Assembly (NCBI GenBank): GCA_963713955.1
Contig: OY970216.1
Coordinates: 378,252-442,251, forward strand
Length of the DNA stretch: 64,000 bases
Origin: an uncultured bacterium
Lineage (GTDB): Bacteria; Patescibacteriota; Minisyncoccia; UBA6257; GWB1-50-10
Direction of reading: 5' to 3'
The notes under the pieces were generated by a model. That model did not search any database, was not told where the DNA came from, and saw only the letters and a list, made by a program, of their open reading frames with translations. Positions 16,932 through 39,280 of the stretch are shown piece after piece. Every line of letters begins with the position of its first letter. Positions within the stretch are counted from its first letter, which is position 1. Both the position numbers and the translations under genes were made by a program.

Positions 16932-16993
16932 GGTATAGAGCATAAAAAAACAAAACCTTGCAGCACAAAATGCCTTGGTTTAAGATTTAATTA

Positions 16994-18793
16994 ATGACGT
17001 CGAACGAAATCAGGGAAAAATTCCTCCAGTTCTTCAAGGAACGGGGACATACGGTGGTGCCTTCATCTTCGCTCATCCCCGATGATCCGTCGGTTCTCCT
17101 CACGACCGCCGGCATGCAGCAATTCAAGCCGTACTATTCGGAGCTTGACCCGATAACGACGACGCACCCCTCGATCGAGAGGCCGGTCGGGAAAAGCGCT
17201 GCCTCGATCCAGAAATCGTTCCGGACGTCGGATATCGACGAAGTGGGGGATGAAAGTCATCTCACGTTTTTCGAGATGCTCGGCAACTTCAGCTTCGGCG
17301 GATATTTCAAGGGAGAAGCCATCAAGTACGGCCATGAGTTCATCACTGGCAAGGATTGGATGGATCTCGATATCGACTTCGTGACTGTTTTCGATCCGGA
17401 GAAAGTGCCGGCGGACGACTGGCGGAAGGGTGTTCCGTTCGACAATGAATCATACGAGATTTGGAAGAAAATCGGTTTGCCGGAAGAGAAGATACGGCGT
17501 GACGGCGTGGACGTTTTTTGGGGGCCGACCGGAAACGAGGGCCCCTGCGGTCCGACGACGGAGATCTACGTCAAAAACGCCGCGGACATGCCGGTTGAAA
17601 TATGGAACATCGTCTTCAACGAATTTTACCGAGATAAGAACATGCGCCTTACCCCCTTGAAGACGCCGGGCGTGGATACGGGTATGGGTTTGGAGCGCCT
17701 CGCGATGGTTTCGCAGAAAGTTTCGAGCATTTTCGAAACGGATCTTTTCATTCCGCTCATCCAGGTTTTGGAACTGAACGACCGGGGGAACAAACTGAAC
17801 CAGAAGACGAAAAGGATCATGGCCGATCACGCGCGGGGCATCTCGTTCTTGATCGCCGACGGCGTCCGCCCCTCCAATAAAGAAGCCGGCTACGTTTTGC
17901 GACGCCTCTGCCGACGCTTCATCGTCAACGAGTATTTGAACGAGGGAGCGGAGCCGTATTTCGAAAGGTTGCTCCATGTCGTCATCGAGAACTACGGCCG
18001 GTTTTACGGCGAGCTCGATTACGATCTTGTCGATACGGTGTTCAACGAGGAAAAAACGAGGTTCATGAAGACGATAGAGAACGGCCTCCGGGAACTCGGG
18101 TCGATCGAGAAACTCGATGCGGCGTCGGCCTTCAAGCTATTTGAAAGCTTCGGGTTGCCGTATGAAGTCATCAAGGAACTGGGAGGAGAAAAAGCAAAAG
18201 CGCTCACGCGGGAGGGCTTTGAGGGAGAATTCGAGAAACACCGGGAAATATCACGCGCCGGCGTCGAGAAAAAATTCGGCGGCCACGGGCTCTTGCTCGA
18301 CACCGGCGAGCTCAAGGCCGGGAACGAAGAAGAACTCGCGAGGGTGATTCGGCTCCACACGGCGACGCACCTCATGCACCAGGCGCTCCGGGAAGTTCTG
18401 GGGAACAGTGTCCACCAGATGGGGTCGGACATAACGCCGGAACGGACGCGATTTGATTTTTCTTTCGAGAGGAAACTCAAGCCGGAAGAGATACGGAGGA
18501 TCGAGGAAAAGGTTAATGCGATTATCAAAGCCGATTATGACGTGAAATTCCAAGAAATGCCGAGGAGCGAGGCTGAAAAAACCGGCGCGCTCCATTTCTT
18601 CAAGGCGAAATATCCCGAACGGGTGAAGGTTTATTACGTAACGCCGAGGGGGAAAGGAATTCCTGAGGCGTGGAGCAAGGAATTCTGCGGCGGACCGCAT
18701 GTAACCCACACGGGAGAAATAGGCAAGTTGAGAGTGGTTAAAGAAGAAAGCGTGGCGGCGGGCGTGCGGAGAATAAGGGCCGTGGTCGATTGA
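16994..18793 (+). CDS. alaS: alanyl-tRNA synthetase (short form lacking C-Ala domain)
   Basis: N-terminal EIREKFLQFFKERGH...LLTTAGMQQFKPYY, HTATHLMHQALR and CGGPHV editing motifs. 599 aa. Confidence 0.8.
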   Translation: MTSNEIREKFLQFFKERGHTVVPSSSLIPDDPSVLLTTAGMQQFKPYYSELDPITTTHPSIERPVGKSAASIQKSFRTSDIDEVGDESHLTFFEMLGNFSFGGYFKGEAIKYGHEFITGKDWMDLDIDFVTVFDPEKVPADDWRKGVPFDNESYEIWKKIGLPEEKIRRDGVDVFWGPTGNEGPCGPTTEIYVKNAADMPVEIWNIVFNEFYRDKNMRLTPLKTPGVDTGMGLERLAMVSQKVSSIFETDLFIPLIQVLELNDRGNKLNQKTKRIMADHARGISFLIADGVRPSNKEAGYVLRRLCRRFIVNEYLNEGAEPYFERLLHVVIENYGRFYGELDYDLVDTVFNEEKTRFMKTIENGLRELGSIEKLDAASAFKLFESFGLPYEVIKELGGEKAKALTREGFEGEFEKHREISRAGVEKKFGGHGLLLDTGELKAGNEEELARVIRLHTATHLMHQALREVLGNSVHQMGSDITPERTRFDFSFERKLKPEEIRRIEEKVNAIIKADYDVKFQEMPRSEAEKTGALHFFKAKYPERVKVYYVTPRGKGIPEAWSKEFCGGPHVTHTGEIGKLRVVKEESVAAGVRRIRAVVD

Positions 18794-19920
18794 AACGAAT
18801 GAATCTCTCGGGATTTTTTAAAAAAATAAGAGGCGGCACCGAGAGATATTTGGTAGTCGAAGAGAAAGACAATTTCTTCGAAAAAACGATTGCCAGCGTC
18901 TGCCTGAGAGATAAGGAAATAAGGATTCTGAGACAGTCGGAAATTGCGAAGCTGAGGGAACTGAAGAAAAACGTCTTGCGGGGATTCGACAAGATCGTTT
19001 TCGCCCTTGATTCCGCCTCGGCGACGACCGTTCAGGATTCGGTGAGGGTAAAAACAGCTTCCCGTCTCAAACCGATCACCGAAACGGAACTCGAGGATAT
19101 TGTTTTCAAGGCCTTATGGGAATTTCTCAATAAGCAAAGAGTCTGGGTTTCCAAAAAACTCAACGTATCTGATGCCGCGCTCGTCTTGAACGACGTGCAG
19201 GTAAGGGGCGTTCGCCTCGATTCCCATAATCTCTTCAATCCGATAGGTTTCAAAGGAGACGAGCTGGAATTCATTTTCAAGGGAACGTTCGTGACGAAAC
19301 AGCTTTATCATGAAATACGCGAAGCGGCAAAGACGGTTCCCCTGTCGATCCTCGAGAAGGGGAGCGTCTTGCTCTCATTCCTCAACGGAGAAAAAGCCAC
19401 TCTGGCTTACGTCGGCGAGGAAAGAACGGAAATCTTTTTCAAGGAAGGTTCCCGGGAAGCGTTTGCCGAGGAGATAAACTGGGGGAGCGTGAAATTCAAG
19501 GAAAGAGTATCGGAGGAATTCGGATTGAATTACCAGGCGTCCGCGACGTTGGTGGAGGCCTATGCCCGGGGATCAGTCTCCCGCACCGTCGAAAGGCACT
19601 TCCGGAAGATAATCGCCGGGTGCTTCGGGGATTTTTTTGGAACAGCTCACCTCGGTGGAAAGCACGTCGTGTTTTATTTCGAATCACTCGCCTTGCCTCG
19701 GAACGTTTTTGGAAAAGAAGTGAAAGGCGACTTTTGCAGACTTGACGAAGAATTGGCAAGAAAGGATTTAAGAATAACGAGAGGCGGGAAGGGGGATTTT
19801 GATCTTTCTCGGCATCAGGATACCGCGGCACTTCTGGTTTATTCTTATGCGGATCAAAGGTACGATTTTCTGAACTCAATGCTCCGGCGGCGCGCCGGGT
19901 GGCTTGTTTCCAATTTTTAG
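18790..19920 (+). CDS. hypothetical protein, possibly actin-fold (FtsA/PilM-like)
   Basis: 376 aa. A weak LDSASATTV phosphate-1-like segment. No firm motif. Confidence 0.3.
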   Translation: MKRMNLSGFFKKIRGGTERYLVVEEKDNFFEKTIASVCLRDKEIRILRQSEIAKLRELKKNVLRGFDKIVFALDSASATTVQDSVRVKTASRLKPITETELEDIVFKALWEFLNKQRVWVSKKLNVSDAALVLNDVQVRGVRLDSHNLFNPIGFKGDELEFIFKGTFVTKQLYHEIREAAKTVPLSILEKGSVLLSFLNGEKATLAYVGEERTEIFFKEGSREAFAEEINWGSVKFKERVSEEFGLNYQASATLVEAYARGSVSRTVERHFRKIIAGCFGDFFGTAHLGGKHVVFYFESLALPRNVFGKEVKGDFCRLDEELARKDLRITRGGKGDFDLSRHQDTAALLVYSYADQRYDFLNSMLRRRAGWLVSNF

Positions 19921-19921
19921 T

Positions 19922-20050
19922 CCCTCACCCTTGGAAGATAAGCAATTGCTTAAAAGTGGATGGTGAGTGATAATTAACGATAATGGGAAAGTTATTAATC
20001 AGCGGTCGTGAAAAAATGGATTGCTCTCGAGCAATCTTTCAAGGGTGAGG
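19922..20050 (+). promoter_or_regulatory. long inverted-repeat intergenic element (family B) copy 1
   Basis: CCCTCACCCTT...AAGGGTGAGGG arms. The 3' arm abuts the ATG at 20052. TTGCTT -35-like box inside. Confidence 0.6.
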
Positions 20051-20051
20051 G

Positions 20052-21734
20052 ATGAAGACTGAAAAGAAGATTTTTCTTGAAAAAGACCAGGATGTCGACT
20101 CGGCGATAGATGAAATCGTCGAGACCTCGGCTACCAGGATAATATTGAATATACCCAAGAATTCCGTTTTGGGAATTTCGATCCATAACTTTCAGATATT
20201 GAAAAGGGAAGCCGAGACCGCGGGCAAGGAGATGGTTGTCGAGTCGGTGGACGAACATGTTCTCGAACTGGCCTCTCTCGCCAAAATAGCCGCCCTGAAT
20301 CCGGTTTTCAGGATCAAAGAAAGAGCGGTTGCCGACATCTTGCCGAAAGAGATGGATATCGGAGGGAGGAGAACGGAAGAAGAATCGGTTGGCGGAGAAA
20401 TAAGCGCCGAGAAGCCGCGGAGAGGCAAAAAAGAAAACGCCAAGAAAGACGCGAAGCGCGAAATTGAGGAGAGAGAGATAGACATATTTGAAGAGGAAAT
20501 CGAAAAATCCCCTCGCGAGCCGGAATACACTCCGTTGTTTGAAGCCAAGGAAAATCCGGAGGAGCCGGAAAAGCCGAGAAAAGAGAGGGGAAAGAGAAGA
20601 AAGAAACTGGTTTTTGCAGGAGTTCTTATCCTCATCTTCGCCGCTGCTTTCTTTGTTCTCACATATCTTCTGCCCCATGTCACCATACGACTCACCATAA
20701 AGAAAACCGCGTCGCCCTTTTCTTCCAGCGTTCTCGTAAGCACGGCGGTGGCGTCGTCTTCGTTTTCAACGAGCACGATTATTCTTCCCGGACAAATCAT
20801 TTCCGCTGCAGGCAACGTCAGTCTCCACTTCGCGAGCGGAACCGAAGAGCATGTGGAAACGAAAGCAAGCGGGATGCTCACGGTGTACAATTCGTATAGT
20901 TCGGCTCCGCAGGTTTTGGTCGCAACGACGCGCTTTGTTTCTCCCGGAGGGAAATTGTTCAGGTCTACGGAACGGATAACCGTTCCCGGAGCCAAAGCCG
21001 CGAGCGGAACCACGACGCCCGGTTCGGCCGGAGTGAACGTGGTTGCCGCCGAGGCCGGCGCGGATTACAACGTCGGACCTTCAACCGGCTGGACGATTCC
21101 GGGGTTCGAGGGAACCCCGCGCTACGATAAATTCTCCGCCGCGGCACTCGCGCCCATGACTGGCGGCTTCGTCGGCACGACGACCGTCCCCACGAAGAAC
21201 GACCTCGTAAGCGCTGAGGGAGAAATCGATCAGCAACTTGAAGGCGTTCTCCAGAGTAAAATTTCTCTTTTGGGTTCGGATAACTTAAAAATATTGCCAC
21301 AATCCCTTTCCTTTGCAACCACGAGCGAGCAAATGACGGATAGCAAGGACGGGCAAGGTTTCGACATTCTCGCCGAAGGCACTATCAAAGAGATCGGTTT
21401 CGACGAAAATATGATGAAGCAAGCGGTCCTGGATTCAGTGACTTCCGGCGGAAGCTCGGGTCTTCAGATAAGCGATTTCACCGTTTCCTATGGAACCTCG
21501 ACCCCCGATTTCTCAAGTGGCAAGATGTATTTCAGCGCTTCGGGGACGATTGCTTACGGACCGAACATCGATTTTGGAAAGGTTAAATCGGAAATACTTG
21601 GCAAGGGGGCCGATCAGCTGAAAGCGATCATCTTCGCGCTGCCGGGCCTCGAAGAAGCGAATGTTTCTTTCTGGCCCTTCTGGGTCAATACCGTGCCCAC
21701 CAATCCATCCAACGTCAACATCGAGGTGCAGTAA
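20052..21734 (+). CDS. hypothetical bitopic membrane protein with charged linker and large extracytoplasmic domain
   Basis: 560 aa. KRE-rich region, a single TM (LVFAGVLILIFAAAFFVL), then a Ser/Thr/Gly-rich domain. Confidence 0.45.
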   Translation: MKTEKKIFLEKDQDVDSAIDEIVETSATRIILNIPKNSVLGISIHNFQILKREAETAGKEMVVESVDEHVLELASLAKIAALNPVFRIKERAVADILPKEMDIGGRRTEEESVGGEISAEKPRRGKKENAKKDAKREIEEREIDIFEEEIEKSPREPEYTPLFEAKENPEEPEKPRKERGKRRKKLVFAGVLILIFAAAFFVLTYLLPHVTIRLTIKKTASPFSSSVLVSTAVASSSFSTSTIILPGQIISAAGNVSLHFASGTEEHVETKASGMLTVYNSYSSAPQVLVATTRFVSPGGKLFRSTERITVPGAKAASGTTTPGSAGVNVVAAEAGADYNVGPSTGWTIPGFEGTPRYDKFSAAALAPMTGGFVGTTTVPTKNDLVSAEGEIDQQLEGVLQSKISLLGSDNLKILPQSLSFATTSEQMTDSKDGQGFDILAEGTIKEIGFDENMMKQAVLDSVTSGGSSGLQISDFTVSYGTSTPDFSSGKMYFSASGTIAYGPNIDFGKVKSEILGKGADQLKAIIFALPGLEEANVSFWPFWVNTVPTNPSNVNIEVQ

Positions 21735-21788
21735 CGCGGGAGTACTGCCCCTTTCGTCAAAGCGCTTCGCTCTCGCGCCCTCAAACCA

Positions 21789-21817
21789 TTGACTTTATGG
21801 GGTGTTTTCTGTAGCAT
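21789..21817 (+). promoter_or_regulatory. sigma70-like promoter upstream of infA (TTGACT-N17-TAGCAT)
   Basis: Spacing and hexamers are near consensus. It lies in the gap after the 20052-21734 ORF. Confidence 0.4.
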
Positions 21818-21826
21818 ATACAATAC

Positions 21827-22057
21827 TTGATGAAAGACGGAGAGAAGTTGCTAAAAGTTGAAGGGATGGTGGTAGAGGCGCTGCCCGGATTGCTTTTTAG
21901 GGTCAAGTTACAATCTCCCGGAGGCGAGAAAGAGGTACTTGCACATCTCGCCGGCAAACTCAAGCTGCACAGGATCAGGGTCATACCCGGGGACCGGGTG
22001 CTCATGGAAATGGCCGGTAAGGGAGACGCAAGGGGCAGGATAGTGAGGAGACTATAA
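21827..22057 (+). CDS. infA: translation initiation factor IF-1
   Basis: S1-like GMVVEALPGLLFRVKL...RGRIVRRL. The track start is a TTG and the ATG is at 21830. Confidence 0.85.
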   Translation: MMKDGEKLLKVEGMVVEALPGLLFRVKLQSPGGEKEVLAHLAGKLKLHRIRVIPGDRVLMEMAGKGDARGRIVRRL

Positions 22058-22068
22058 AAAAATAAAAA

Positions 22069-22185
22069 ATGAAGGTAAGATCTTCGGTCAAAAAAATATG
22101 CATGAACTGCAAAGCCGTTAAACGCAACGGCAAGCTTTACGTCATATGTTCCAAAAATCCGAAACATAAGCAAAGACAGGGATGA
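22069..22185 (+). CDS. rpmJ: 50S ribosomal protein L36
   Basis: [38 protein letters not shown], 38 aa and not in the ORF track. The stop overlaps the rpsM ATG. Confidence 0.85.
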
Positions 22186-22565
22186 GAGTAGCCGGAGTCA
22201 ACATACCCGATGATAAAAAGGTCCAGTTTGCGCTGGCCTACATTTATGGCGTTGGCCCTTCTCTCGCCGGCAAGATCGTGGCTGAAACGAAAGTGAACCC
22301 GGCGAAGCGGGCGAAAGACTTGACGCCGGAAGAAGTCAACAAAATCCAATCAATCATAGAGAAGCGTTACAAAGTCGAGGGGGAGTTAAGGCAAGCCATA
22401 CGACAGAATATTTCGCGCTTGAAGGACATCAAGTGCTACCGGGGAATGCGGCATTTGAGAAAGTTGCCCGTGAGGGGTCAGAGAACGAAAACTAATTCGA
22501 GAACGGTACGAGGCAACGTAAGGCATACGGCCGGAAGCGGCAAGAGGAAAGTGGAACTGAAATAA
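22182..22565 (+). CDS. rpsM: 30S ribosomal protein S13
   Basis: MRVAGVNIP...ALAYIYGVG start and a basic C-terminus. Confidence 0.9.
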
Positions 22566-22566
22566 T

Positions 22567-22698
22567 CCCTCACCCTTCAAAGATTGCTTCGCTTAAAAAA
22601 CATTTGATACAATATGAAATTCATGATTGATACAAATATACGGAGAAATAATGCAAACTTCAGAGTCGTGAAGTTTATTAATCTTTAAAGGGTGAGGG
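22567..22698 (+). promoter_or_regulatory. long inverted-repeat intergenic element (family B) copy 2, between rpsM and rpsK, enclosing promoter TTGCTT-N18-TACAAT (22584-22613)
   Basis: 19-bp arms CCCTCACCCTTCAAAGATT / AATCTTTAAAGGGTGAGGG. The 3' arm abuts the rpsK ATG. Confidence 0.65.
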
Positions 22699-23151
22699 AT
22701 GGGGAAGAAAAAAGTAATACAAAAATCCAAAGAAGAGACGACGGGAGAGAGCAAGGGAGCGGGGAAACCGGTTTCCCGGGAATCTTCTTCGCCGGTGAGA
22801 CAAAAACTCAGCGAGGGAAAGATTTACATCCAGTCCACCTATAACAATACAATGATATCCGTTACCGACCGCGCGGGGAACGTCGTTACCTGGATGTCAG
22901 CCGGATCGCTTGGTTTTTCCGGACCGAAGAAAGCGACGCCGTTCGCCGCTTCCAAGGTGGCGGAAGCGATAGCGCAGAAGATAGAAAAGTCAGGACCCTC
23001 GACGGTGGAAATATACGTCCGCGGCGTGGGTTCCGGAAGAGATTCGGCGATCCGATCATTTGCCGCCAAGGGTTTCAACATAACGGCGATAAAGGACGTC
23101 ACGCCGATTCCGCATAACGGCCCCAAGCCGCCGAAAACCAGAAGGGTGTAA
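22699..23151 (+). CDS. rpsK: 30S ribosomal protein S11
   Basis: IYIQSTYNNTMISVTD...PFAA...ITDVTPIPHNG. Confidence 0.9.
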   Translation: MGKKKVIQKSKEETTGESKGAGKPVSRESSSPVRQKLSEGKIYIQSTYNNTMISVTDRAGNVVTWMSAGSLGFSGPKKATPFAASKVAEAIAQKIEKSGPSTVEIYVRGVGSGRDSAIRSFAAKGFNITAIKDVTPIPHNGPKPPKTRRV

Positions 23152-23158
23152 ATAAGGA

Positions 23159-23761
23159 ATGAAAAACGTAAAAGAAAAAAAAGAACGAGCGCTCGGCATC
23201 AAGCTTTTCCTCAAAGCAGAGCGATGCAATTCTCCGAAATGTGCGACGGTAAGAAAGCCGTATGGCCCCGGAATGCACGGTCAGAAAAGAAAAAGGCCTA
23301 TTTCCGATTTCGGCAGGCAGCTTAAGGAAAAACAAAAGATGCAGTTAATCTACGGTTTGAACAACAGGCAAGTGAGAGCGCTTTTCAGGGATTATTCGCC
23401 CGAGAAGATATTTTCCGCCCTTGAAAGGAGACTGGACAGGGTGGTATATTATCTTGGTTTCGCTCCTTCCCTGAGGGTAGGAAGGCAAATCGTTTCCCAC
23501 GGTCACATCCTCGTGAACGGCAAAAAAGTGACGATCCCCTCGTTTCGGGTGAAAACAGGAGACAAGATTACGGTGAGACCGGAATCGAGGAAGAGCAAGC
23601 TGTTTGAGGAATTGTCGGAAAAATTGAAACAAAAAGAACTTCCCGCGTGGCTTACCTTGAAAGGGGAGGAATTCACCGGTGAGTGCGTGGCAATGCCGGA
23701 TTTCAAAGGGATTCAACTGCCCTTCGATATAAGCCTGGTCGGCGAGTTTTATTCCCGGTGA
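23159..23761 (+). CDS. rpsD: 30S ribosomal protein S4
   Basis: LQLIYGLNNRQVRALF and an S4 domain, with an N-terminal Cys-containing segment. Confidence 0.9.
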   Translation: MKNVKEKKERALGIKLFLKAERCNSPKCATVRKPYGPGMHGQKRKRPISDFGRQLKEKQKMQLIYGLNNRQVRALFRDYSPEKIFSALERRLDRVVYYLGFAPSLRVGRQIVSHGHILVNGKKVTIPSFRVKTGDKITVRPESRKSKLFEELSEKLKQKELPAWLTLKGEEFTGECVAMPDFKGIQLPFDISLVGEFYSR

Positions 23762-23762
23762 G

Positions 23763-23892
23763 TACAACTGCGATAAGATTAAATCAGTGTTTAAAGTTAA
23801 TTAAAAGTTGAAACATATGATATTAAGTAAAGGTCATCAAGGGGAATAAATGTGGTTTTGATTTAATCAAATACTGCAATCGCAGTTGTACT
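23763..23892 (+). promoter_or_regulatory. long imperfect hairpin in rpsD-rpoA intergenic region
   Basis: GTACAACTGCGAT..GATTAAATCA paired with TGATTTAATC..ATCGCAGTTGTAC, giving ~23 bp of stem around a ~75-nt loop. Confidence 0.5.
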
Positions 23893-23957
23893 ACTGGGTA
23901 TTCGAGATAGTATATGGGAACAAAAACGTCGATTTTTAAATTGTTAGCGAACACTTC

Positions 23958-24707
23958 ATGAAGTACACTCATCTCAGCGAAACAGTGTCGGTGAAAACGA
24001 TTTCGGAAAAAGAAAATGTCGGAGTTTTTCACGTCGAAGGGTTGTATACGGGCTACGGCGTTACGCTCGGGAACGCATTGAGGCGCGTTCTTTTGTCTTC
24101 TCTGCCGGGAGCGGCCATAACCCAGGTGAAAATCAGGAATGTCGATCATGAATTCTCGACCTTGCCCGGCATGGCCGAAGACATCGTGGAATTCTCCCTC
24201 AATCTTAAAAAAGTCAGGTTTTATTTCACGGCCGATGAGCCGCAAACGCTGAAATTGCTTTCCAAGGGGGAGGGAGAAATAAAAGCGAGCGACATCGAGG
24301 GGAATGCCTTCGTTCGCGTATTGAACGGGGATCTGCGCTTGGCGACTCTCACGAGGAAAAACGCCGAACTGGACGCGGAACTCACCGTGGAGAAAGGATT
24401 GGGATACGTCGTGGCTGAATCGCGGAGAATGGAGAGGCTGTCAGTCGGGACCGTCGTCCTCGACGCCATATTTTCGCCGGTGGTGAAAGTTTCGTTTGAA
24501 GTCGAAAACATGCGCGTCGGCGATCGGACGGATTTCAATCGGCTGAAGCTTGAGATAGAAACCGACGGATCGATAAGTCCCTCGGAAGCTCTCCATAAAG
24601 CGGCGAACGTTTTGAAGGACCATTTCGATAAAGTTACGGCTGTTGAAATCGTGCCGGCCGAAATGCCGTCGCCAAGCGAGGGGAAATCACCGAAGAGGAA
24701 GAAATGA
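23958..24707 (+). CDS. rpoA: DNA-directed RNA polymerase alpha subunit, N-terminal domain only (no alpha-CTD)
   Basis: VEGLYTGYGVTLGNALRRVLLSSLPGAA. 249 aa ending in a Lys-rich tail. Confidence 0.85.
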   Translation: MKYTHLSETVSVKTISEKENVGVFHVEGLYTGYGVTLGNALRRVLLSSLPGAAITQVKIRNVDHEFSTLPGMAEDIVEFSLNLKKVRFYFTADEPQTLKLLSKGEGEIKASDIEGNAFVRVLNGDLRLATLTRKNAELDAELTVEKGLGYVVAESRRMERLSVGTVVLDAIFSPVVKVSFEVENMRVGDRTDFNRLKLEIETDGSISPSEALHKAANVLKDHFDKVTAVEIVPAEMPSPSEGKSPKRKK

Positions 24708-25054
24708 GGCATTTGCACAAAGGCAGAAAATTCGGTCTGAAGAAAGGAAGAAGAAGGGCGTTTTTGCGCATCCTGGCCAATAATTTGATAAGCCGCGGGC
24801 GCATTACGACGACGGAAGCGAGGGCAAAAGAAATAAAAACAGTCGTCGAGCGGTACGTCACCTACGGCAAGAAGCAGAATTTAGCCGGTCTTAAGCTTCT
24901 TTTGAAATACCTGCCGAAGAAATCTGCTTACAAGGTTTATCACGAACTGGCTCCCCGCTACGCCGAAAGGAAAGGCGGCTATTTGAGGGTTCTCAAGATG
25001 GCATCGCGGAGAAAAAACGACGGTTCGAAGATGGCAAGGATTGAGTTTGTATAA
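24704..25054 (+). CDS. rplQ: 50S ribosomal protein L17
   Basis: MRHLHKGRKFG...RITTTEARAKE. Confidence 0.9.
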   Translation: MRHLHKGRKFGLKKGRRRAFLRILANNLISRGRITTTEARAKEIKTVVERYVTYGKKQNLAGLKLLLKYLPKKSAYKVYHELAPRYAERKGGYLRVLKMASRRKNDGSKMARIEFV

Positions 25055-25058
25055 GAGT

Positions 25059-25403
25059 ATGACGGAACACGTAATTGACGCAAAAAACAAGAGACTCGGC
25101 AGATTAGCGTCGGAAATAGCCGTTATTCTGCAGGGGAAAGACAAACCGAGCTATAACCCGCGGCTTGAAGGAAACGAGGTTGTGAGGGTAAAGAACGTTT
25201 CAGGTTTGGTTCTGACCGGAAGCAAAGAGAAAACGAAAATTTATTACAAGCATACCGGCCCCCTGGGACACCTCAAGGAGAATAAGTACGCGGACGTGTT
25301 CAACAAGAATCCTGCCTGGGTTTTGAGACACGCGGTGCGCCTTATGCTTCCCAAAAACAAATTGGCCGCCAAAAGGTTGAAAAGATTGATTATAGAAAAA
25401 TAA
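25059..25403 (+). CDS. rplM: 50S ribosomal protein L13
   Basis: KRLGRLASEIAVILQGK. The start taken is the internal ATG (MTEHV); the track start at 25041 overlaps rplQ. Confidence 0.85.
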   Translation: MTEHVIDAKNKRLGRLASEIAVILQGKDKPSYNPRLEGNEVVRVKNVSGLVLTGSKEKTKIYYKHTGPLGHLKENKYADVFNKNPAWVLRHAVRLMLPKNKLAAKRLKRLIIEK

Positions 25404-25405
25404 CG

Positions 25406-25873
25406 TTGCAGAGTATGCCTCCCAAGAAAACAAAAGTTTCGGAAAAAGCGGAGAAGAAAATCCAAGCCAAGGAAAAATATACTGAAGCCGTCGGCAGAAG
25501 AAAAACGGCTGTGGCGAGAGTGAGGATATTTGCTAAGAGAGCTGAAAAAGACGGCGACGTGGAAATAACGATCAACGGGAAAAATCTCGCTGAATACTTT
25601 CCGGTTAAAAAGAACCAGAATGTTTCGAGAGCTCCTTTTAAGGCTCTGTCTCTCAAGGAGTATTCGGGCGCAGTCAAAGTCATGGGAGGGGGAGTCAACG
25701 CCCAAGCGGAAGCCATCCGGTTGGGCTTTGCGAGAGCCTTGGTTGCATTGAATCCGTTGTGGAGATCTCCTCTCAAGTCTTTGGGTTATTTGAAAAGAGA
25801 CCCGCGGATGGTGGAGCGGAAGAAATTCGGTTCCCGCAAGGCGAGAAGGCCCCAACAATGGCGTAAGAGATAA
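25406..25873 (+). CDS. rpsI: 30S ribosomal protein S9
   Basis: GGGVNAQAEAIRLGFARAL...KARRPQQWRKR C-terminus. Confidence 0.9.
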   Translation: MQSMPPKKTKVSEKAEKKIQAKEKYTEAVGRRKTAVARVRIFAKRAEKDGDVEITINGKNLAEYFPVKKNQNVSRAPFKALSLKEYSGAVKVMGGGVNAQAEAIRLGFARALVALNPLWRSPLKSLGYLKRDPRMVERKKFGSRKARRPQQWRKR

Positions 25874-25878
25874 GAAAA

Positions 25879-25900
25879 GCCCCGCTCAAGCGGGGTTTTC
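25879..25900 (+). terminator. rho-independent terminator after rpsI
   Basis: GCCCCGC-tcaa-GCGGGG stem followed by TTTT. Confidence 0.7.
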
Positions 25901-26066
25901 TCTTACGCTATTGTTGGGATAGAAGGGGTCGGGGAGGAACGGGAAATGAGTTCCTCCCCGTGTAGGAAGCTATGAGAAACCGAGGGTTTCTCAGGAGCGA
26001 GTTGCTGCATAGCGACTCGCGACGCAGCATTGGCGGAAGTCGTTTTCTCCACTGCTGGGATCTGCT

Positions 26067-26255
26067 AAAAACTATTCAGCCTCCTCGCTAAAACCCTCGG
26101 TTATCAAAATCCTCCTCGCTCTTCGTCGGAATTATCCGCAAAATATCGAACTCGACCTAAAGGGACTCAAACAGCGATATTTTGCTCATTCCTTCCTCAT
26201 TGCTCGGGGATTTTGAAACAATCTCGAACAAACCGCTCAAAAGCTGAATAGTTTT
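26067..26255 (+). repeat. palindromic intergenic repeat, copy R1
   Basis: Bounded by AAAACTATTCAGC/GCTGAATAGTTTT inverted repeats. The inner stem is GCAAAATATCG...CGATATTTTGC. It shares CTCCTCGCT...TCGTCGGAAT and GCTCATTCCTTCCTCA..GCTCGGGGATTTTGA blocks with 6 other copies. Confidence 0.8.
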
Positions 26256-26270
26256 CATCGGAGTGCTTTT

Positions 26271-26300
26271 CAAAAGTTTGAATCCTCCCCTGTGCACTAA
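26271..26300 (+). repeat. degenerate copy l of conserved module
   Basis: CAAAAGTTTGAATCCTCCCCTGTGCACTAAA. Confidence 0.5.
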
Positions 26301-26303
26301 AGG

Positions 26304-26750
26304 CTAAACAAGAAGTTCAGCAAATATCTTATCGATATCTTTGAGGGTTTTATACATCTTAACAGAAAGATGAGGATTGCCTGCAATCATAGCGGAAAGT
26401 CTTCTTCCTTCCTGCTCTCGATAGAGGCACAAAATTCTCTTTTGTAAACTTTCTGCTATACCAAGCTCGTATCCTACCCCCAGACTCGCCGTGGTTACTT
26501 CGGCAACAACAATGTCGGATCCGGTGAGCCATTGAACATCTCTTGAGTAAATATCCTTATCGGATAGCTGTGCTTCCCCATAGCTACTTAGTTCCTTATT
26601 TCCAATGTGTTCCGTGGCTACTGTTCCAAAGGCAGAAAGCTTCTTTATGATCTCCAAATAAAGCTCCTTATCATCACGACCACCACGGATTGATCCCGCG
26701 AAGTATATCTTCATAAGGGGAATTATAAGCTTAAAATGCTGATTTTCCAA
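26304..26750 (-). CDS. 2'-deoxynucleoside 5'-phosphate N-hydrolase (DNPH1/Rcl-like, nucleoside 2-deoxyribosyltransferase fold)
   Basis: IYFAGSIRGGR...GTVATEHI...DIVVAEVTTASLGVGYELG...KRILCLY matches the DNPH1 family signature. TTG start. Confidence 0.7.
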   Translation of the reverse strand: MENQHFKLIIPLMKIYFAGSIRGGRDDKELYLEIIKKLSAFGTVATEHIGNKELSSYGEAQLSDKDIYSRDVQWLTGSDIVVAEVTTASLGVGYELGIAESLQKRILCLYREQEGRRLSAMIAGNPHLSVKMYKTLKDIDKIFAELLV

Positions 26751-26754
26751 CTAG

Positions 26755-26780
26755 AATCGTTCGAACATCGTCCACTACTG
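26755..26780 (+). repeat. conserved module copy a
   Basis: AATCGTTCGAACATCGTCCACTACTG, starting 5 bp beyond the DNPH1 start and lying upstream of the NTase gene. Confidence 0.8.
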
Positions 26781-26864
26781 TGCTGTGCGGTGTACTAGAA
26801 TAATGTGGAATGATCAAGGACGATCTGATTATCCATATTTCCAGAAACGATTTATACTTTAGAT

Positions 26865-27596
26865 ATGGAGGTAACAATCCCCGATTTTATTTCAAAAGAG
26901 ATAACCAAAATCAGAAGAGCCGAAGCCATATTGCTTACTGGATCACGAGTATTGGGAAAAGCTGGGGAAAACGCCGACTGGGACTTTTTTATTATTCTTA
27001 AGAACGGAACGCCGCGATGGCGTAAGACCTGGAAGGTGAAAAACACTTGGATAGAAATATTTTGCAATGATAAAAAGCAAATACTGAAAGAGTTTAGGGA
27101 GGATTTGGAAGAGGGCAAGGGCGTAACAACCTATATGTTTGCAACGGGTATTGTTATATCTGACCACAAGAATGTCTTGCATAATCTTGTTCGAATAGCG
27201 AAAAAGAATTGGGAGAGGGGACCAAATAAGTTAAAGCTTATAAAGAAGACATGGATTGATCTTGATATAAGCACATACCTGCAAGATATTGAGGACTGTA
27301 TCTATGATGATAATCCCGCTCATCTTATTTTCAATCATGCCGCGAACGAATTCGTAAATTATGACTACCGCCTGAGAAATATATGGATGCCACGACCTAA
27401 AGATAGACTTGAGGATATGAAAAAAAGATCTCCTGCAATTTATAAATTAATTCAGGAAATAAATTCCACCCAGAATTGGAAACTGAAAGCTAGAAAAGTA
27501 ATAGAATTGGGAGAATTGATTGGATCTCGGAATAACCTAAAACTCACAGGAGAAGCATATATACCCGCAAAAAAGTTGGCAATACGCAGGAAGTAA
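26865..27596 (+). CDS. pol-beta-superfamily nucleotidyltransferase (aminoglycoside/KNTase-like architecture)
   Basis: LTGSRVLGKAGENADWDFFIIL is the GS-x9-13-DxD NTase motif. A ~150-aa helical C-terminal half follows. Confidence 0.55.
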   Translation: MEVTIPDFISKEITKIRRAEAILLTGSRVLGKAGENADWDFFIILKNGTPRWRKTWKVKNTWIEIFCNDKKQILKEFREDLEEGKGVTTYMFATGIVISDHKNVLHNLVRIAKKNWERGPNKLKLIKKTWIDLDISTYLQDIEDCIYDDNPAHLIFNHAANEFVNYDYRLRNIWMPRPKDRLEDMKKRSPAIYKLIQEINSTQNWKLKARKVIELGELIGSRNNLKLTGEAYIPAKKLAIRRK

Positions 27597-27636
27597 TTCC
27601 TACCAGCACGATGTTCAATAGTTTAAAGTGTTAGCC

Positions 27637-27664
27637 AAAATCGTTCGAACATCGTCCACTACTG
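27637..27664 (+). repeat. conserved module copy b (5' part; interrupted by IS1595)
   Basis: AAAATCGTTCGAACATCGTCCACTACTG. The 3' part (CCGTGCACTACAAATTGACA) resumes at 28511-28530, after the IS. Confidence 0.8.
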
Positions 27665-28520
27665 TGCAGGGTATCCCTAGTCAATTGGCGCAAAGGTTAA
27701 CGACTTTTTGAGGTAGTTCCTGGGGTTTTGAAACAATTCCGGTGAGGAAAATCTGACGGAAAATTCCCTCACGTAGTCAGGCATCTTCTCCGCGGTCACG
27801 TGATGGTACATTCTCCTCACGAATGTCCTGAAGTTCCCGAACATCCCCTCGATCTCGGAGGTCTTCCCGAACTCCCATTTAGCATGGATGTCCCGTTCGT
27901 GTCTCACTGGCCACCATCTCTCGATGCCCCGGTATATGGCTGCCCCATCGGTATGGAGCCTCGCCCTCGGCTTCACGTACTCCATGAGGAACCGAACCGC
28001 TTCTGCTCGGTCAACCGACTTCTCGGGCAAAACCACGTACGCGACCTTTCTCGAGCGCTCCTCTTTCCCCATGATGAGTGACCAGCCCTTGCCGTATGCC
28101 TCATCGAGCTGCACGATCCGTGAGAGAATATCATGGTTTTGAGGCAGGTGTTCCCGGAAGCGGTCGTACCAGCGACGGATGGCCATCTCGGAAAGCCCCG
28201 AGAGGTTCATGGCTTGAACAACGGGTATCTTTTCGCACCACGCCCAGAGGATGAGCCACCACGTCTCAAGCGGGAGCTTCAGATCGCTTAACCAGGTGTA
28301 TGAGAGGAGGGTGAACCTTCTCCGACATCGGGGGCACCAGTACCGATCCTTCTCCTTCCAGACATCCCGGTACCGACAGCGGGGACAGTACACATTCTTG
28401 CCAAAGAGCGTTCTCCGGAGAAACTTCCTGATCTGGGCTTCCGACGGTATTTGATTCAATTGGTACATATCCTTCATGGTATGCGATATGCGCCAACATG
28501 ATTAGAGTACCCGTGCACTA
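27663..28520 (-). mobile_element. IS1595-family insertion sequence (~860 bp) inserted into a copy of the conserved 45-bp module
   Basis: Imperfect terminal IRs TGTGCAGGGTATCCCTAGTCAAT (left) and ATGATTAGAGTACCCGTGCAC (right, reverse complement). GTGCA is repeated at both junctions. Confidence 0.65.
27677..28477 (-). CDS. IS1595-family (ISXO2-like) DDE transposase
   Basis: N-terminal CPRC...CPRC zinc ribbon and an HTDGAAIY DDE segment. 266 aa. Confidence 0.8.
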   Translation of the reverse strand: MKDMYQLNQIPSEAQIRKFLRRTLFGKNVYCPRCRYRDVWKEKDRYWCPRCRRRFTLLSYTWLSDLKLPLETWWLILWAWCEKIPVVQAMNLSGLSEMAIRRWYDRFREHLPQNHDILSRIVQLDEAYGKGWSLIMGKEERSRKVAYVVLPEKSVDRAEAVRFLMEYVKPRARLHTDGAAIYRGIERWWPVRHERDIHAKWEFGKTSEIEGMFGNFRTFVRRMYHHVTAEKMPDYVREFSVRFSSPELFQNPRNYLKKSLTFAPID

Positions 28521-28530
28521 CAAATTGACA
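28511..28530 (+). repeat. 3' part of interrupted module copy b, carrying the TTGACA -35
   Basis: GTGCACTACAAATTGACA, compared with the consensus GTGCACTAAAATTGACA. Confidence 0.65.
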
Positions 28531-28598
28531 AAAAACATAGAAGTGTGTTATTGTGCTTTTGATTAAAACAGTTCATTCACTTATAAATAGGAGCTATC

Positions 28599-28949
28599 AT
28601 GAACCTCTTTCTTAGCGTCAGTCTTGTTGCGATACTCATTGGATTCGTTTGTGAATACTGGTATTCACACAGAAAGCTTGCATGGCGTATCTGGACTCCG
28701 ATTACCTTCAGTGTAGTAACTCTCCTTGCAGGGTTGACCTCTGTGGTATGTATGACCCTGGGAGTACTTACCAATACCGAATGGAATGCTGTCTCCGGAG
28801 CCGTTATCGTGATTTCCCAAATGAACTTTATGTGGTTTATTTTTATCACGATTTCAACAACGCTTCTCCTTTCCTTTGCGATACTTTCCATGTCAGATGT
28901 GTGGCTCTGGAAAATCAAACATAGGGTTACCAGACGACTACCAATATGA
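28599..28949 (+). CDS. small integral membrane protein (cassette cargo)
   Basis: 116 aa with 3-4 TMs, preceded by a TTGACA -35 that belongs to the interrupted module. Confidence 0.35.
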   Translation: MNLFLSVSLVAILIGFVCEYWYSHRKLAWRIWTPITFSVVTLLAGLTSVVCMTLGVLTNTEWNAVSGAVIVISQMNFMWFIFITISTTLLLSFAILSMSDVWLWKIKHRVTRRLPI

Positions 28950-29096
28950 GATATACGAATCCCTCGACAACTCGTAAACTATCCACTCCGTTAGATAGGC
29001 AATCCACTAACGGAGTTTCCCTTTATAATACAATATATTTCGAAACTTCTATTCCTATACCAAAGTTGATAGACTCATTTTTCGGAAATCTGTCCT

Positions 29097-29124
29097 AAAA
29101 TCGTTCGAACATCGTCCACTCCTG
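29097..29124 (+). repeat. conserved module copy c (exact 28-mer) plus hairpin
   Basis: AAAATCGTTCGAACATCGTCCACTCCTG, then a CGCTGCGCAGTGTGG stem and an extended -10 TGATATAAT at 29152-29160. Confidence 0.85.
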
Positions 29125-29202
29125 CGCTGCGCAGTGTGGGCAAAGAAAAAATGATATAATTCTTGAAAGGCCGATGTGCTTAATTAATCTCATTATAAAA
29201 AC

Positions 29203-29355
29203 ATGGTAAGAGGAAACTTCATTGGCGCGGCGATTGTCGCAATAATCTACACGGTCTATATTTTATGGAATCCGCTTCCACGAACCACAGAAATAATATT
29301 ATTAGTGGTTCTTAATGCTTTAACTATCGTATTGATGGCTTTTGCATTCAGATAA
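29203..29355 (+). CDS. small membrane protein (50 aa), cassette cargo
   Basis: MVRGNFIGAAIVAIIYTVYILWNPLPRTTEIILLVVLNALTIVLMAFAFR. Preceded by module copy c and an extended -10. It is below the ORF-track length cutoff. Confidence 0.3.
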   Translation: MVRGNFIGAAIVAIIYTVYILWNPLPRTTEIILLVVLNALTIVLMAFAFR

Positions 29356-29408
29356 AAAGTTGAATCTCTCAGAGAATCGAGCTGCCGGTTTTAAGCGCGG
29401 CTCAAACA

Positions 29409-29427
29409 CCGTCCACTCCTGTACACC
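29409..29427 (+). repeat. partial (3' half) copy d of conserved module
   Basis: CCGTCCACTCCTGTACACC with the 5' half replaced. It lies just upstream of IS3 copy 1. Confidence 0.6.
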
Positions 29428-29583
29428 AACTTGCCTAAAACTGCACATTTACCTCACTTACCAGAGGGGATTTTTTGTGCTATGATATCGTCAAACATCA
29501 TGAAGAAGTTGGCCTTGTTTGATATTGACTGTTCCGGATAGGAAAATTTAGACACAAAGGTCGGAACAAATTACCATTGTGTC

Positions 29584-29847
29584 ATGGCTAACAAAAAAGG
29601 ATATCGGGTAGCGAAAGAGGTAAAAGCGGAGATTGTCCGCCGCGTGAAGGAAGAAGGCGTCTCCGTCGCAGAAGCGGCAAAAGATGCAGGCGTCCACGAG
29701 ACAACCGTGTATGGATGGCTCGGCGCCGGTGCCACGAGCGCTCCCTCCTGGGGAGAAATCAATCGCCTAAAGAAACAGAATCAGGAACTCTTCGAAGTGA
29801 TCGGTGAACTCACGATCAAGCTGTCCCAGACCCAAAAAAAGAATTGA
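29584..29847 (+). CDS. IS3 transposase OrfA (HTH)
   Basis: 87-aa HTH/leucine-zipper OrfA ending at AAAAAAAG. Confidence 0.8.
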   Translation: MANKKGYRVAKEVKAEIVRRVKEEGVSVAEAAKDAGVHETTVYGWLGAGATSAPSWGEINRLKKQNQELFEVIGELTIKLSQTQKKN

Positions 29848-30626
29848 GCAGGGAAAGGAACGTATCCGCCCTGGCTCGCGCCATGGGTGTCTCGCGCTCA
29901 TCGCTCTATTACGTCGCAACGCAGGACAAGAAGGATTGGGCATTAAAGGTCCGGACGGAGGAGGTGCTTCACGAGCATCCCTCATACGGCTCACGCCGAC
30001 TGGCGATTGCGCTCGGCATCGGCAGACCGAGAGCGCAACGGGTCATGCGGATTTACGGCATCAAGCCCTACCGCAGGCATGGGAGAAAATACAGGAAATC
30101 CAAGGCGGAACGGCACTTCCCGAACCTCCTCCTCGGCATTATGCCATCATATGCGAACCATGTCTGGGCGACGGATTTCACGGAGCTTGTCTTTCACGGG
30201 AAGAAGCTGTACGTATCAACGATCCTTAACCTGTTTACGAGGCAACTGATGGGCGTTCATGTGGCGACCCGGAAGGGATCGACGCTCACCATCCAAACTC
30301 TGGCGAACGCGCTCTTCCATTGCCCGCGACCCGTGATCTTCCATTCTGACAACGGGAGGGAATACGAAGCGAAGGCGTTCATCGCTATGCTTGAGCGCTA
30401 CGGCATCACCATCTCCCGCTCACGCCCCGGATCGCCGTGGGAGAACGGATACCAAGAATCTTTCTACGGAAAATTCAAAATGGATCTTGGCGATCCTAAT
30501 CGGTTCAGATCCTTAGGGGAACTTGTGGCGGAGATCTACCGAACGCTTTGGGAGTACAACCATACAAGAATCCACTCCGCTCTCAGGATGCCGCCTTCGG
30601 TGTTTGCAGAGAAGATAGCAGTGTGA
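29844..30626 (+). CDS. IS3 transposase OrfB (DDE integrase core), -1 frame
   Basis: HSDNGREYEAK, WENGYQESFYGKFK and NHTRIHSAL integrase-core motifs. Frame -1 relative to orfA. Confidence 0.8.
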   Translation: MSRERNVSALARAMGVSRSSLYYVATQDKKDWALKVRTEEVLHEHPSYGSRRLAIALGIGRPRAQRVMRIYGIKPYRRHGRKYRKSKAERHFPNLLLGIMPSYANHVWATDFTELVFHGKKLYVSTILNLFTRQLMGVHVATRKGSTLTIQTLANALFHCPRPVIFHSDNGREYEAKAFIAMLERYGITISRSRPGSPWENGYQESFYGKFKMDLGDPNRFRSLGELVAEIYRTLWEYNHTRIHSALRMPPSVFAEKIAV

Positions 30627-30969
30627 GAGAATGAAAAAACGACGAGAAAACTTGTCGAGTGACTGTCTAAAGAAACCTATCCATCACACCGGCCCAATCA
30701 GTACGAAATAAGAAGTATTTCAAGTCCGACAAGATGGGTCACCGCCACTTGTGGTCAAAGACCCAATGGGTTGAGTTTCTAAAAAACTACTATAAGATCA
30801 AAGAAGCAAGAGTGGTTAGAGCGATTCGAAAAGATGACCTGGTTATAGCTCTTACTAAAAAGTAGATATTATTTTAACTAATCGGAATTTGTCCCTTCCG
30901 TCATTTTCTCCCACTGGCCTGACCCCCATATATTAGACACAAAGGTCGAAGTCAATATACCCTTGTGTC

Positions 30970-31227
30970 ATGAAGAAAACATATCGCACTGCTCCCGAGG
31001 TGAAGGAGCAGATATTGAAGAGAATCAAGGAGGAAGGGATCCCGGTCGTCCAGGCCGCCAAGGAACACGGTCTGAATCCCGCCACCATATACAACTGGCT
31101 GGGAAGGGGCGTGAAAGGCACCCCCACGATCGGTGAACTCGTCCGCCTCAAGCGCCAGAACGAAGAGCTCCTCGCCCTCGTGGGCGAGCTCACCCTGGCC
31201 TCCTCACGCACTCAAAAAAAGCGTTGA
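30970..31227 (+). CDS. IS3 transposase OrfA
   Basis: 85 aa, identical to the 61072-61329 product. Confidence 0.8.
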   Translation: MKKTYRTAPEVKEQILKRIKEEGIPVVQAAKEHGLNPATIYNWLGRGVKGTPTIGELVRLKRQNEELLALVGELTLASSRTQKKR

Positions 31228-32033
31228 TCAAAAAGCAGAAGAAGACGAAGTGGGAACTTGCCCGTGAACTCGGCCTCTCCCGCGCCTCCCTCTACTATGT
31301 CTCGAAACAATCGCCCAAGGATTGGTCGCTCAAGGAAAGGATCATATCAGTCTTGAGAGACCATCCTTCATACGGCTTCAGAAGAGTGGCTTTGGAGCTC
31401 AAGATCAACAAAAAAAGAGCCCAACGGGTGATGAGGCTCTTCGGGATGAAGGCATATCGGAGAAGGGGCAGAAGGCCAAGGAAAACGGGCTTCTCGAGTA
31501 TCCTGTATCCCAATCTCCTTCAGAAGAACTTCCCCAAAGGATTGAACGATATCTGGGTGGCGGACTTCACGTACATCCCGTACCAAGGGAAGTTCCTGTA
31601 TCTCGCCACCGTGATGGATTTGTTTGCGAGGGAGATCGTGGGCTGGGCCGTGATGAATACCCACTCGGTGCCTCTGGTCCTCCAGGCACTCTTCTCCGCG
31701 GCGGAACATCATCCGAGACCCAACATCTTCCACTCGGACAACGGAAGGGAGTATGGCTCAAGGATCTTCACCGGAGCTCTTTTGAACCTCGGCGTCAGGA
31801 TATCGAGATCGAGGAAGTCATCGCCATGGGAGAACGGCTACCAGGAGTCCTTCTACTCCCAGTTCAAGGTGGATCTGGGCGATCCGGAGAGGTTCAAATC
31901 GCTGGGAGAGCTGGTCTACGAGATCCATCGCCTGGTCTGGGACTACAACCACCGGAGAATCCACTCCGCCCTCAGGATGCCGCCTGCACTGTTCTCGAAT
32001 CGCTACCAGAAACTTGTCGAAAAAGTGTCTTAA
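31224..32033 (+). CDS. IS3 transposase OrfB (-1 frame)
   Basis: HSDNGREYGSR...WENGYQESFYSQFK...NHRRIHSAL. Identical to the 61326-62135 product. Confidence 0.8.
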   Translation: MIKKQKKTKWELARELGLSRASLYYVSKQSPKDWSLKERIISVLRDHPSYGFRRVALELKINKKRAQRVMRLFGMKAYRRRGRRPRKTGFSSILYPNLLQKNFPKGLNDIWVADFTYIPYQGKFLYLATVMDLFAREIVGWAVMNTHSVPLVLQALFSAAEHHPRPNIFHSDNGREYGSRIFTGALLNLGVRISRSRKSSPWENGYQESFYSQFKVDLGDPERFKSLGELVYEIHRLVWDYNHRRIHSALRMPPALFSNRYQKLVEKVS

Positions 32034-32078
32034 CTTTGGGGGTCTTTACAATCAGATAGAAAAAGAATCCTTAATGCG

Positions 32079-32898: not shown

Positions 32899-32990
32899 GA
32901 GACAGAGGAAGCAATGTTTCTTGTCTCTATTCTTGGGGGTGGGTCCTACGACTTGCTCCCTCGATTTTTTATAGCTACCCAGAGCTGTTC

Positions 32991-33546: not shown

Positions 33547-33624
33547 TGATGCACAGGCACATGTTCTTATTTCCAGATTTTTGTACAATACCCGTCACAA
33601 GTCCAATGTGGCGGGCCTTTCTTT

Positions 33625-33718: not shown

Positions 33719-33857
33719 TAAAAAATCCCCGAGCGATGAGGAAGGAATGAGCACAATAGCGAATGTTTGAATCCCGCTGGTTTCATTAATGAAACCAAGG
33801 TTGAGTTCGCTATTGTGCGACTTTATTTCGATGAAGAGCGAGGAGGATTTTAGCAAC
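33719..33857 (-). repeat. palindromic intergenic repeat, copy R2 (inverted relative to R1)
   Basis: Reverse complement of the GCTCATTCCTTCCTCATCGCTCGGGGATTTT block. Inner stem GCACAATAGCG...CGCTATTGTGC with a GGTTTCATTAATGAAACC insert shared with copy R6. Confidence 0.8.
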
Positions 33858-39235: not shown

Positions 39236-39271
39236 TTCGCGAAACTAACTCAAAAGCAAAAGATTTTCCTG

Positions 39272-39280
39272 TGTTATAAT
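39272..39280 (+). promoter_or_regulatory. extended -10 (TGTTATAAT) upstream of pilin paralog 2
   Basis: TGnTATAAT consensus 10 bp before the ATG at 39290. Confidence 0.4.

Follow-up and report, generated by a model that had tools for sequence, protein, structure and literature searches.

The IS1595 family of insertion sequences (ISs; ISfinder; Siguier, Gagnevin and Chandler 2009) counts ISEc69 and ISApl4 (IS1016 subgroup) among its characterised members. Target duplications of 8 bp have been described for the family (PMC10045372, PMC7835479, PMC12561309). Those of ISEc69 are A/T-rich, and all 23 of its mapped insertions lie inside genes (PMC7835479); those of ISApl4 are likewise A/T-rich, with no stated relation to promoters (PMC12561309). 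Here we describe an element of this family in a 64,000-nucleotide stretch of contig OY970216.1 (assembly GCA_963713955.1), a Patescibacteria (candidate phyla radiation, CPR) genome; the whole stretch is called the window. The IS occupies positions 27669-28512 on the minus strand and interrupts one copy, copy b, of a module that is repeated nine times in the window.

Some ISs choose their targets by sequence or structure. IS1397 and ISKpn1 enter REP (repetitive extragenic palindromic) palindromes, members of the IS1111 group enter integron attC sites, and IS911 and IS30 insert beside sequences that resemble their own ends. The window IS and its relatives would likewise home to a short recurrent non-coding motif, so that gene disruption is avoided; they differ in that the motif is a generic -35 hexamer, in belonging to another transposase family, and in that either end of the element may face the motif. 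In eukaryotes, the Ty3 and Ty1 retrotransposons integrate at RNA polymerase III promoters or a short way upstream. Promoter-positioned integration that spares the transcription unit is the point of likeness; Ty3 and Ty1 are, however, retroelements tethered by transcription factors, and the window IS has no known or demonstrated tethering factor. Targeting anchored to the -35 hexamer appears to be new: we know of no IS that homes to this hexamer, precise sequence-anchored DDE ISs are few, and no report of -35-directed insertion was found in the literature searched.

We propose, with a probability of about 0.85, that an intact and recently active IS1595-family IS inserted into the intergenic DNA that separates a nucleotidyltransferase gene from the gene of a small membrane protein, and that it landed there owing to the preference of its clade for DNA just upstream of sigma-70 -35 hexamers, not owing to the repeated module. 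The staggered cut would be set to leave 4 bases between the end of the 8-bp duplication and TTGAC(A), and either IS end may face the promoter. The target would here have been GTGCACTA-CAA-ATTGACA, with its promoter at the 3' edge of module copy b. Insertion would have left the core promoter (-35, -10) and the gene intact and moved the 28-mer that is conserved in the module 844 bp away, and a later loss of 3 bp (CTA) would have left only GTGCA at the left junction.

Family, ends and sister copies of the element

Profile searches and alignment with 32 related or identical elements (33 with the window copy) identified the segment as an intact 844-bp IS1595-family IS. Its G+C content is ~57%, against ~38% in the flanks. 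The transposase scored 41.6 bits against Pfam PF12762 (DDE_Tnp_IS1595; curated cut-off 27) and 77.2 bits against NCBIfam NF033547 ('IS1595 family transposase'; curated cut-off 75). The IS1595 zinc-ribbon model, Pfam PF12760, gave 23.2 bits, slightly below its cut-off of 25.4; according to precomputed annotation, this domain is present in many homologs. Alignment with 16 homologs (58-82% identity) showed that the N-terminal cysteines C31-P-x-C34 and C48-x-x-C51 are invariant, as are D125 (LDEAY), D177 (TDG), E210 (SEIEG) and R217 (+7). Assigned by conservation, not by structure, D125, D177 and E210 would form the catalytic triad and R217 would be the basic residue that follows it. In the same alignment Met4 is invariant and Met1 variable; translation may start at 28468 (the ATG of Met4), giving a protein of 263 aa.

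The single DDE transposase with an N-terminal zinc ribbon, the short imperfect terminal inverted repeats, the size of less than 1 kb and the family profiles passed are all shared with the IS1595 family, as is the 8-bp target duplication of the element type (8-9 bp in the sister copies described below). A single open reading frame (ORF) bounded by terminal inverted repeats is the organisation of the family over ~0.7-1.2 kb, and 844 bp falls in this range. Of the subgroups named in ISfinder (ISPna2, IS1016, IS1595, ISSod11, ISNwi1, ISH4 and ISNha5), the IS1016 group is the one that the IS seems to resemble in its GGG... ends, its D-D-E-R motif and its small size. The original prediction, made by a model from the letters of the window, had recognised an IS1595-family element within a module copy. 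The profile scores confirm it, and the strings that it quoted all lie where it had placed them.

At E <= 1e-5 we found 1266 homologs of the transposase, nearly all of them metagenomic. Many lie on contigs of 0.9-1.2 kb, the pattern expected where an assembler isolates a repeated element. Identity to annotated plasmid-borne IS1595-family transposases is only ~25%, and the window IS is a new, divergent member of a known family. No relatives of the IS were found on viral contigs.

The ends were set by comparing the DNA outside the gene in the window, in one homolog contig (L001) and in 40 metagenomic loci that encode relatives. Similarity breaks off at identical bases across relatives and sister copies, so that the IS ends are GGGTA...TACCC; the DNA outside GGGTA differs in every copy compared. 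On the 5' side of the transposase the element reads 5'-GGGTA(A/C)TCTAA...TTGGCGCA and on the 3' side ...GCGCCAATTGACTAGGnATACCC-3'. When the two ends of the window IS were aligned with the left ends of four relatives, GGGTA and TTGGCGCA were invariant in the six sequences and nothing similar lay beyond GGGTA. The terminal inverted repeats are conserved among relatives. Those of the window copy match at 16 of 26 positions in an ungapped alignment, a score reached by only 11 of 100,000 shuffles. The original prediction had read the inner ends as imperfect inverted repeats, and the repeats are real, but its alignment started 5-6 bases too far out and needed an indel because GTGCA, which is flanking DNA, had been taken into the repeats. 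Its boundaries at ~27663-28520 have to be replaced by 27669 and 28512, which lie 6 and 8 bases further in.

The transposase belongs to a 90% cluster of five members, two of which led to further loci in the same European Nucleotide Archive (ENA) sample. At L050 the IS copy is 100% identical over 844 bp and is flanked by a clean 8-bp duplication, ACCGACGC. At L051 (281-1124) it is 99.9% identical, with one mismatch, and is flanked by a clean 9-bp duplication, TTATCAAAG. These copies indicate that the window IS is multi-copy and recently active. In the L051 copy the transposase gene is frameshifted and split into ORFs of 77 and 177 aa.

Position of the insertions relative to -35 hexamers

To describe the target, flanks were read outward from the junction with 0-based offsets, which gave 58 distinct flanks. 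TTGAC starts exactly at offset 12 in 17 of them, compared with a mean of 0.06 and a maximum of 2 in shuffles, and occurs only six times at all other offsets combined. The relaxed motif T[TG]GAC is found at offset 12 in 22 flanks. All 15 insertions validated by a duplication have TTGAC or a near-variant (TGGAC, TTGTA) at offset 12 on one side. The rule of the clade is thus duplication + 3 nt + N + TTGAC, that is, the duplication ends 4 bases before TTGAC(A). It extends to relatives with ~50% transposase identity (L029, L031, L033 and L034). At L051, where the duplication is 9 bp, the 3-nt gap to NTTGAC is still kept, and the cut nearer the hexamer is therefore the fixed one. The hexamer stands beside the left IS end in ~10 validated cases and beside the right end in ~6; since either end finds it, orientation is free.

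A TAnnnT box follows the hexamer by 15-19 nt, mostly 17, in 15 of 20 cases, and several of these 20 sequences have a ribosome-binding site and a start codon further downstream. Predicted from these motifs, the hexamer sites are promoters directed away from the IS. The clade, which is widespread and mostly metagenomic and has transposases 50-100% identical to that of the window, is probably a promoter-homing transposon that would recognise TTGAC(A), or whatever is bound there, and insert in a fixed register, whichever of its ends faces the promoter. Unlike the duplications of ISEc69 and ISApl4, those of this clade, such as ACCGACGC and GTGGGAGC, are not rich in A/T and always keep the same distance of 4 nt from the TTGAC(A) downstream. 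We considered whether the target hexamer mimics a hexamer of the IS end and rejected this: GTCAAT lies 11 nt from the tip of the right repeat only in the closest relatives, and a clade with GGGTAATGTAACCC ends still targets TTGACA.

The right flank of the window IS, GTGCACTA-CAA-ATTGACA, fits the rule perfectly, with TTGACA at 28525, 12 nt after the IS end. The window copy thus obeys the rule, which explains its landing in the module. The original prediction had the gene at 28599 probably driven by a split promoter. This is not borne out: the IS ends at 28512, to the left of both hexamers (28525-28554). The element has instead come between the promoter and the conserved 28-mer, and these two are now 844 bp apart. 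Expression of the downstream gene may be affected in this way: if the 28-mer is regulatory, the gene would now be uncoupled from it. A hybrid promoter for the transposase, composed of TTGTCA in the flank and TACTCT in the IS end, found no support in the promoter scan and was dropped.

Three contig pairs (L013/L014, L003/L004 and L017/L028) have one IS flank in common and the other flank different. At L001, L013 and L025 a TTGAC-like box lies at the canonical distance on both sides of the IS, and the duplication is absent. Shared single flanks and two-sided TTGAC boxes are the pattern that would be expected from recombination between promoter-adjacent IS copies, or from chimeric assembly.

The window insertion and competing accounts

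Thirteen relatives have 8-bp direct repeats, perfect or 7/8, directly outside GGGTA...CCC; together with L050 (8 bp) and L051 (9 bp), they give the element type the duplication described for its family. The window flanks read ...CCACTACTGTGCA-IS-GTGCACTACAAATTGACA..., ending in ACTGTGCA on the left and beginning with GTGCACTA on the right. The left flank, ...ACT-GTGCA, is GTGCACTA minus its last three bases, CTA. The GTGCA-like target duplication of the original prediction is thus a real repeat, but it is not the normal footprint, as the element and its relatives make 8-bp (sometimes 9-bp) duplications. By this comparison the 5-bp repeat of the window copy is anomalous, and canonical insertion followed by loss of CTA at the left junction is the simplest and most likely explanation.

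Removal of the IS and of one GTGCA yields CCACTACTGTGCACTACAAATTGACA, which matches module copy 32982 (CACTACTGGGCACTA-AAATTGACT) in 22 of 25 aligned columns, and the reconstructed empty site reads ...CGTCCACTACTGTGCACTACAAATTGACAAAAAAC.... After the 28-mer, the rebuilt sequence shares TG(T/C/G)(G/A)(C/T)AC(C/T)AA with copies 29395, 59274 and 59768, and TGTGCACYAA is shared with four other module copies. The ancestral sequence ...CGTCCACTACTGTGCACTACAAATTGACA... is the same whether a 3-bp loss, a 5-bp stagger or recombination is assumed. That removal restores an extended consensus of 28-mer + TGTGCAC + AAATTGACA, as had been predicted, is confirmed by the 22/25 match to copy 32982. The further claim that these parts form one ancestral unit holds in part: the motif TG(T/C/G)(G/A)(C/T)AC(C/T)AA follows the 28-mer in five of the nine copies, but a strong -35/-10 pair is present in only three.

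Several points weigh against the proposed history. The window copy itself lacks the 8-bp duplication, only 5 bp (GTGCA) being repeated. About half of the metagenomic relatives are without a target duplication, and rearrangement or chimeric assembly across this IS is therefore common. No empty-site allele was found: exact searches with the transposase, nucleotidyltransferase and membrane protein returned only the insertion-carrying L048 and L049, so that the ancestral state would be the one suggested by paralogous module copies. Finally, the target rule is a pattern among surviving insertions, and selection could explain part of it; selection would not give a single-base register.

Several observations lend some weight to an account in which two insertions entered two module copies and homologous recombination between the ISs deleted what lay between them, GTGCA then being mere similarity of module copies. 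The element is multi-copy, about half of its relatives have no duplication, three contig pairs share one flank only, the region is rich in IS elements, and missing duplications mark rearrangements in ISApl4 (PMC12561309). However, this account needs a module variant that was not observed, with a spacer 3 nt shorter (ACTGTGCA+NNN+NTTGAC), as well as a second insertion in the same orientation. The flanks join to a near-perfect match of copy 32982. A single 3-bp loss is simpler, and we consider the recombination unlikely, although it is the strongest of the alternatives. Slightly less likely still is the arrangement originally predicted, an IS at ~27663-28520 with repeats that begin at GTGCA, a genuine 5-bp duplication and a split promoter. 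GTGCA does occur on both sides of the element, and dropping one copy restores the module consensus. Yet similarity stops at GGGTA in the 32 relatives and sister copies, with different DNA outside, and the two further copies of the element from the same sample have duplications of 8 and 9 bp. A 5-bp stagger would moreover be misplaced by 3 nt, breaking the fixed 3+1-nt distance to TTGAC, and the IS has both promoter hexamers on its right.

We also asked whether a multi-copy IS had been collapsed in assembly and unrelated flanks joined. Both window junctions recur in L049, an ENA contig that is 99.99% identical to window positions 16865-30905 (14 kb) and has the identical gene order. The left junction is also present in L048, a short-read Logan contig that ends 31 nt inside the IS, a break typical of a repeat and the one observation that would suit an artefact. 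As a second assembly has both junctions and a third has the left one, they are no artefact of a single assembly; the flanks, besides, complement each other into one module, and this account is very improbable. Least probable of all is that the IS targets the 28-mer of the module itself, in the way that IS1111-type elements enter attC or IS1397 enters REP. The insertion does sit within a module copy, but none of the 32 other insertion sites, two of the identical element among them, has the 28-mer; the feature that they share is TTGAC at a fixed distance, and the eight other module copies of the window are unoccupied. Because the clade follows TTGAC and the other 32 sites are without the 28-mer, the IS, on the preferred reading of -35-directed insertion, marks a promoter at the module edge and not the module as a target of mobile elements.

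The module, its surroundings and the meaning of the insertion

The features discussed are collected in the table below.

Features of the window around the IS1595-family element and of other repeats
Feature	Position	Strand	Basis or remark
Upstream nucleotidyltransferase gene	26865-27596	+	Stop codon 40 nt before module
Left part of module copy b: conserved 28-mer + TGTGCA	27637-27668	+	Module copy comparison
Left copy of direct repeat, GTGCA; probably a truncated GTGCACTA	27664-27668	+	Sequence
Right inverted repeat (read inward), GGGTATCCCTAGTCAATTGGCGCAAA	27669-27694	+	Alignment of relatives
Transposase gene, 266 aa	27677-28477	-	Sole long ORF in segment; Pfam and NCBIfam profile matches
Left inverted repeat (transposase sense), GGGTACTCTAATCATGTTGGCGCATA	28487-28512	-	Alignment of relatives
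Right copy of predicted 8-bp duplication, GTGCACTA	28513-28520	+	First 5 bases (GTGCA, 28513-28517) repeat 27664-27668; clade rule
Intact sigma-70-type promoter-like site, TTGACA-18-TATTGT, TG before -10	28525-28554	+	Promoter scan; -35 starts 12 nt past IS end
Downstream gene, 116-aa membrane-like orphan protein	28599-28949	+	AGGAG 5 nt before ATG
IS3-family IS	29530-30690		rve-domain transposase
IS3-family ISs, two copies of one element	30915-32050 and 61017-62152		rve-domain transposases; single mismatch between copies
~135-nt repeat	26106-26216, 39090-39228, 46543-46696	+	70-95% identical between copies
~135-nt repeat	33722-33853, 42893-43004, 48310-48441	-	70-95% identical between copies
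~135-nt repeat, partial	56032-56062
Three paralogous genes	15249-16430, 39194-40513, 46852-48183		Shared N-terminus and C-terminal motif, by eye

Module copies lie at 26754, 29098, 32423, 33627 and 59768, with variants at 27638 (copy b), 29395, 32982 and 59274. A strong promoter-like site comes after only three copies (b, 32423 and 32982), and no other plus-strand site in the region scores as high as these three. Terminator-like hairpins with T runs at 32935-32960 and 33591-33615 lie directly upstream of copies 32982 and 33627, where the module is placed between terminator and promoter. On the minus strand of the 28-mer, five of the nine copies read AGGAG, 6 nt, ATG TTC GAA CGR TTY and a stop (MFERF*); the differences include synonymous CGA/CGG and TTT/TTC, and the stops are TAG and TGA. 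This may be a mini-ORF or a coincidence. Copy 26754 lies just upstream of the sole minus-strand gene of the array (26304-26750).

A scan of genome contigs with the module 19-mer CGTTCGAACATCGTCCACT gave six single matches, of which three are intergenic in metagenome-assembled genomes of uncultured bacteria and three are chance-like, in high-G+C coding DNA; none of the six is in the source genome. The intergenic matches are at L043 (5144-5162), L044 (2109-2127) and L047 (175-193), once each, and the motif is therefore not confined to the window genome. In L043 the match runs on into CACTGTGGC, as it does in window copy 33627. A known RNA or a tRNA fragment was rejected as the identity of the module, since there was no Rfam match and the window has no tRNA.

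The array, in which single short ORFs of almost uniform orientation alternate with a conserved repeat, resembles an integron cassette array; it differs in that several copies lie among ordinary housekeeping-type genes. We rejected the module as an attC site. The nine copies have no common hairpin, with z-scores of -2.2 to +1.1 for single-strand DNA folding, no GTTRRRY (R') box occurs at a fixed place, and there are no R/L boxes. Of the 16 ORFs scanned, which lie in or near the two module regions, none encodes IntI or another tyrosine recombinase. The module was also rejected as the end of the neighbouring IS3-like elements, whose repeats are elsewhere, at 29536/30682 and 30915/32050. For the two IS3-family copies at 30915-32050 and 61017-62152, no 3-bp duplications are evident. 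Together these elements mark the module array as an IS hot spot.

The membrane-like protein encoded downstream of the IS has no Pfam family, and its only homolog in 5.8 billion clustered proteins is itself. The RNA polymerase alpha subunit of the window (23958-24707) has 249 aa and matches N-terminal domain families only. The gene for ribosomal protein L17 starts at 24704, so that there is no room for an alpha C-terminal domain. The 120 best homologs of this subunit are all 243-271 aa long, and those with names are from Patescibacteria (Parcubacteria, Jorgensenbacteria, Minisyncoccia and Paceibacterota), which places the window, part of a contig of 804,691 bp, in a CPR bacterium. The host lineage, to judge by these proteins, seems to be without an alpha C-terminal domain, the part that recognises DNA lying upstream of -35 boxes. 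Because the alpha subunit has no such domain to read upstream promoter DNA, the position taken by the IS may be nearly free of cost in a Patescibacteria host.

Opposed pairs of the ~135-nt repeat bracket the module array (26.1-33.9 kb) and two blocks of prepilin-type/LamG-like genes (39.1-43.0 and 46.5-48.4 kb). The repeat has no Rfam match; it may serve as a leader, or its copies may be the repeats that border invertible segments. Read by eye from the repeat sequences, the three paralogous genes have an N-terminus like FTLIELLVVIAI, a prepilin-type cleavage/methylation motif, and they also share the DNA for a C-terminal motif like IDDVRVYNRALSAAEI.

The gain for annotation is modest: a further IS whose ends are exact, a footprint put right and a downstream promoter recognised as intact. 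The IS itself is ordinary, and the fixed -35 register of its clade is the sole part that goes beyond this. If promoter-homing is true, the IS is placed at the one intergenic position that destroys neither a gene nor a core promoter. If the rule reflects the specificity of the enzyme, it would show how ISs can spread through the very small, gene-dense genomes of CPR bacteria and still spare the genes. It would also supply a natural marker of promoters in uncultured organisms, and a compact protein for placing DNA at a set distance from promoters.

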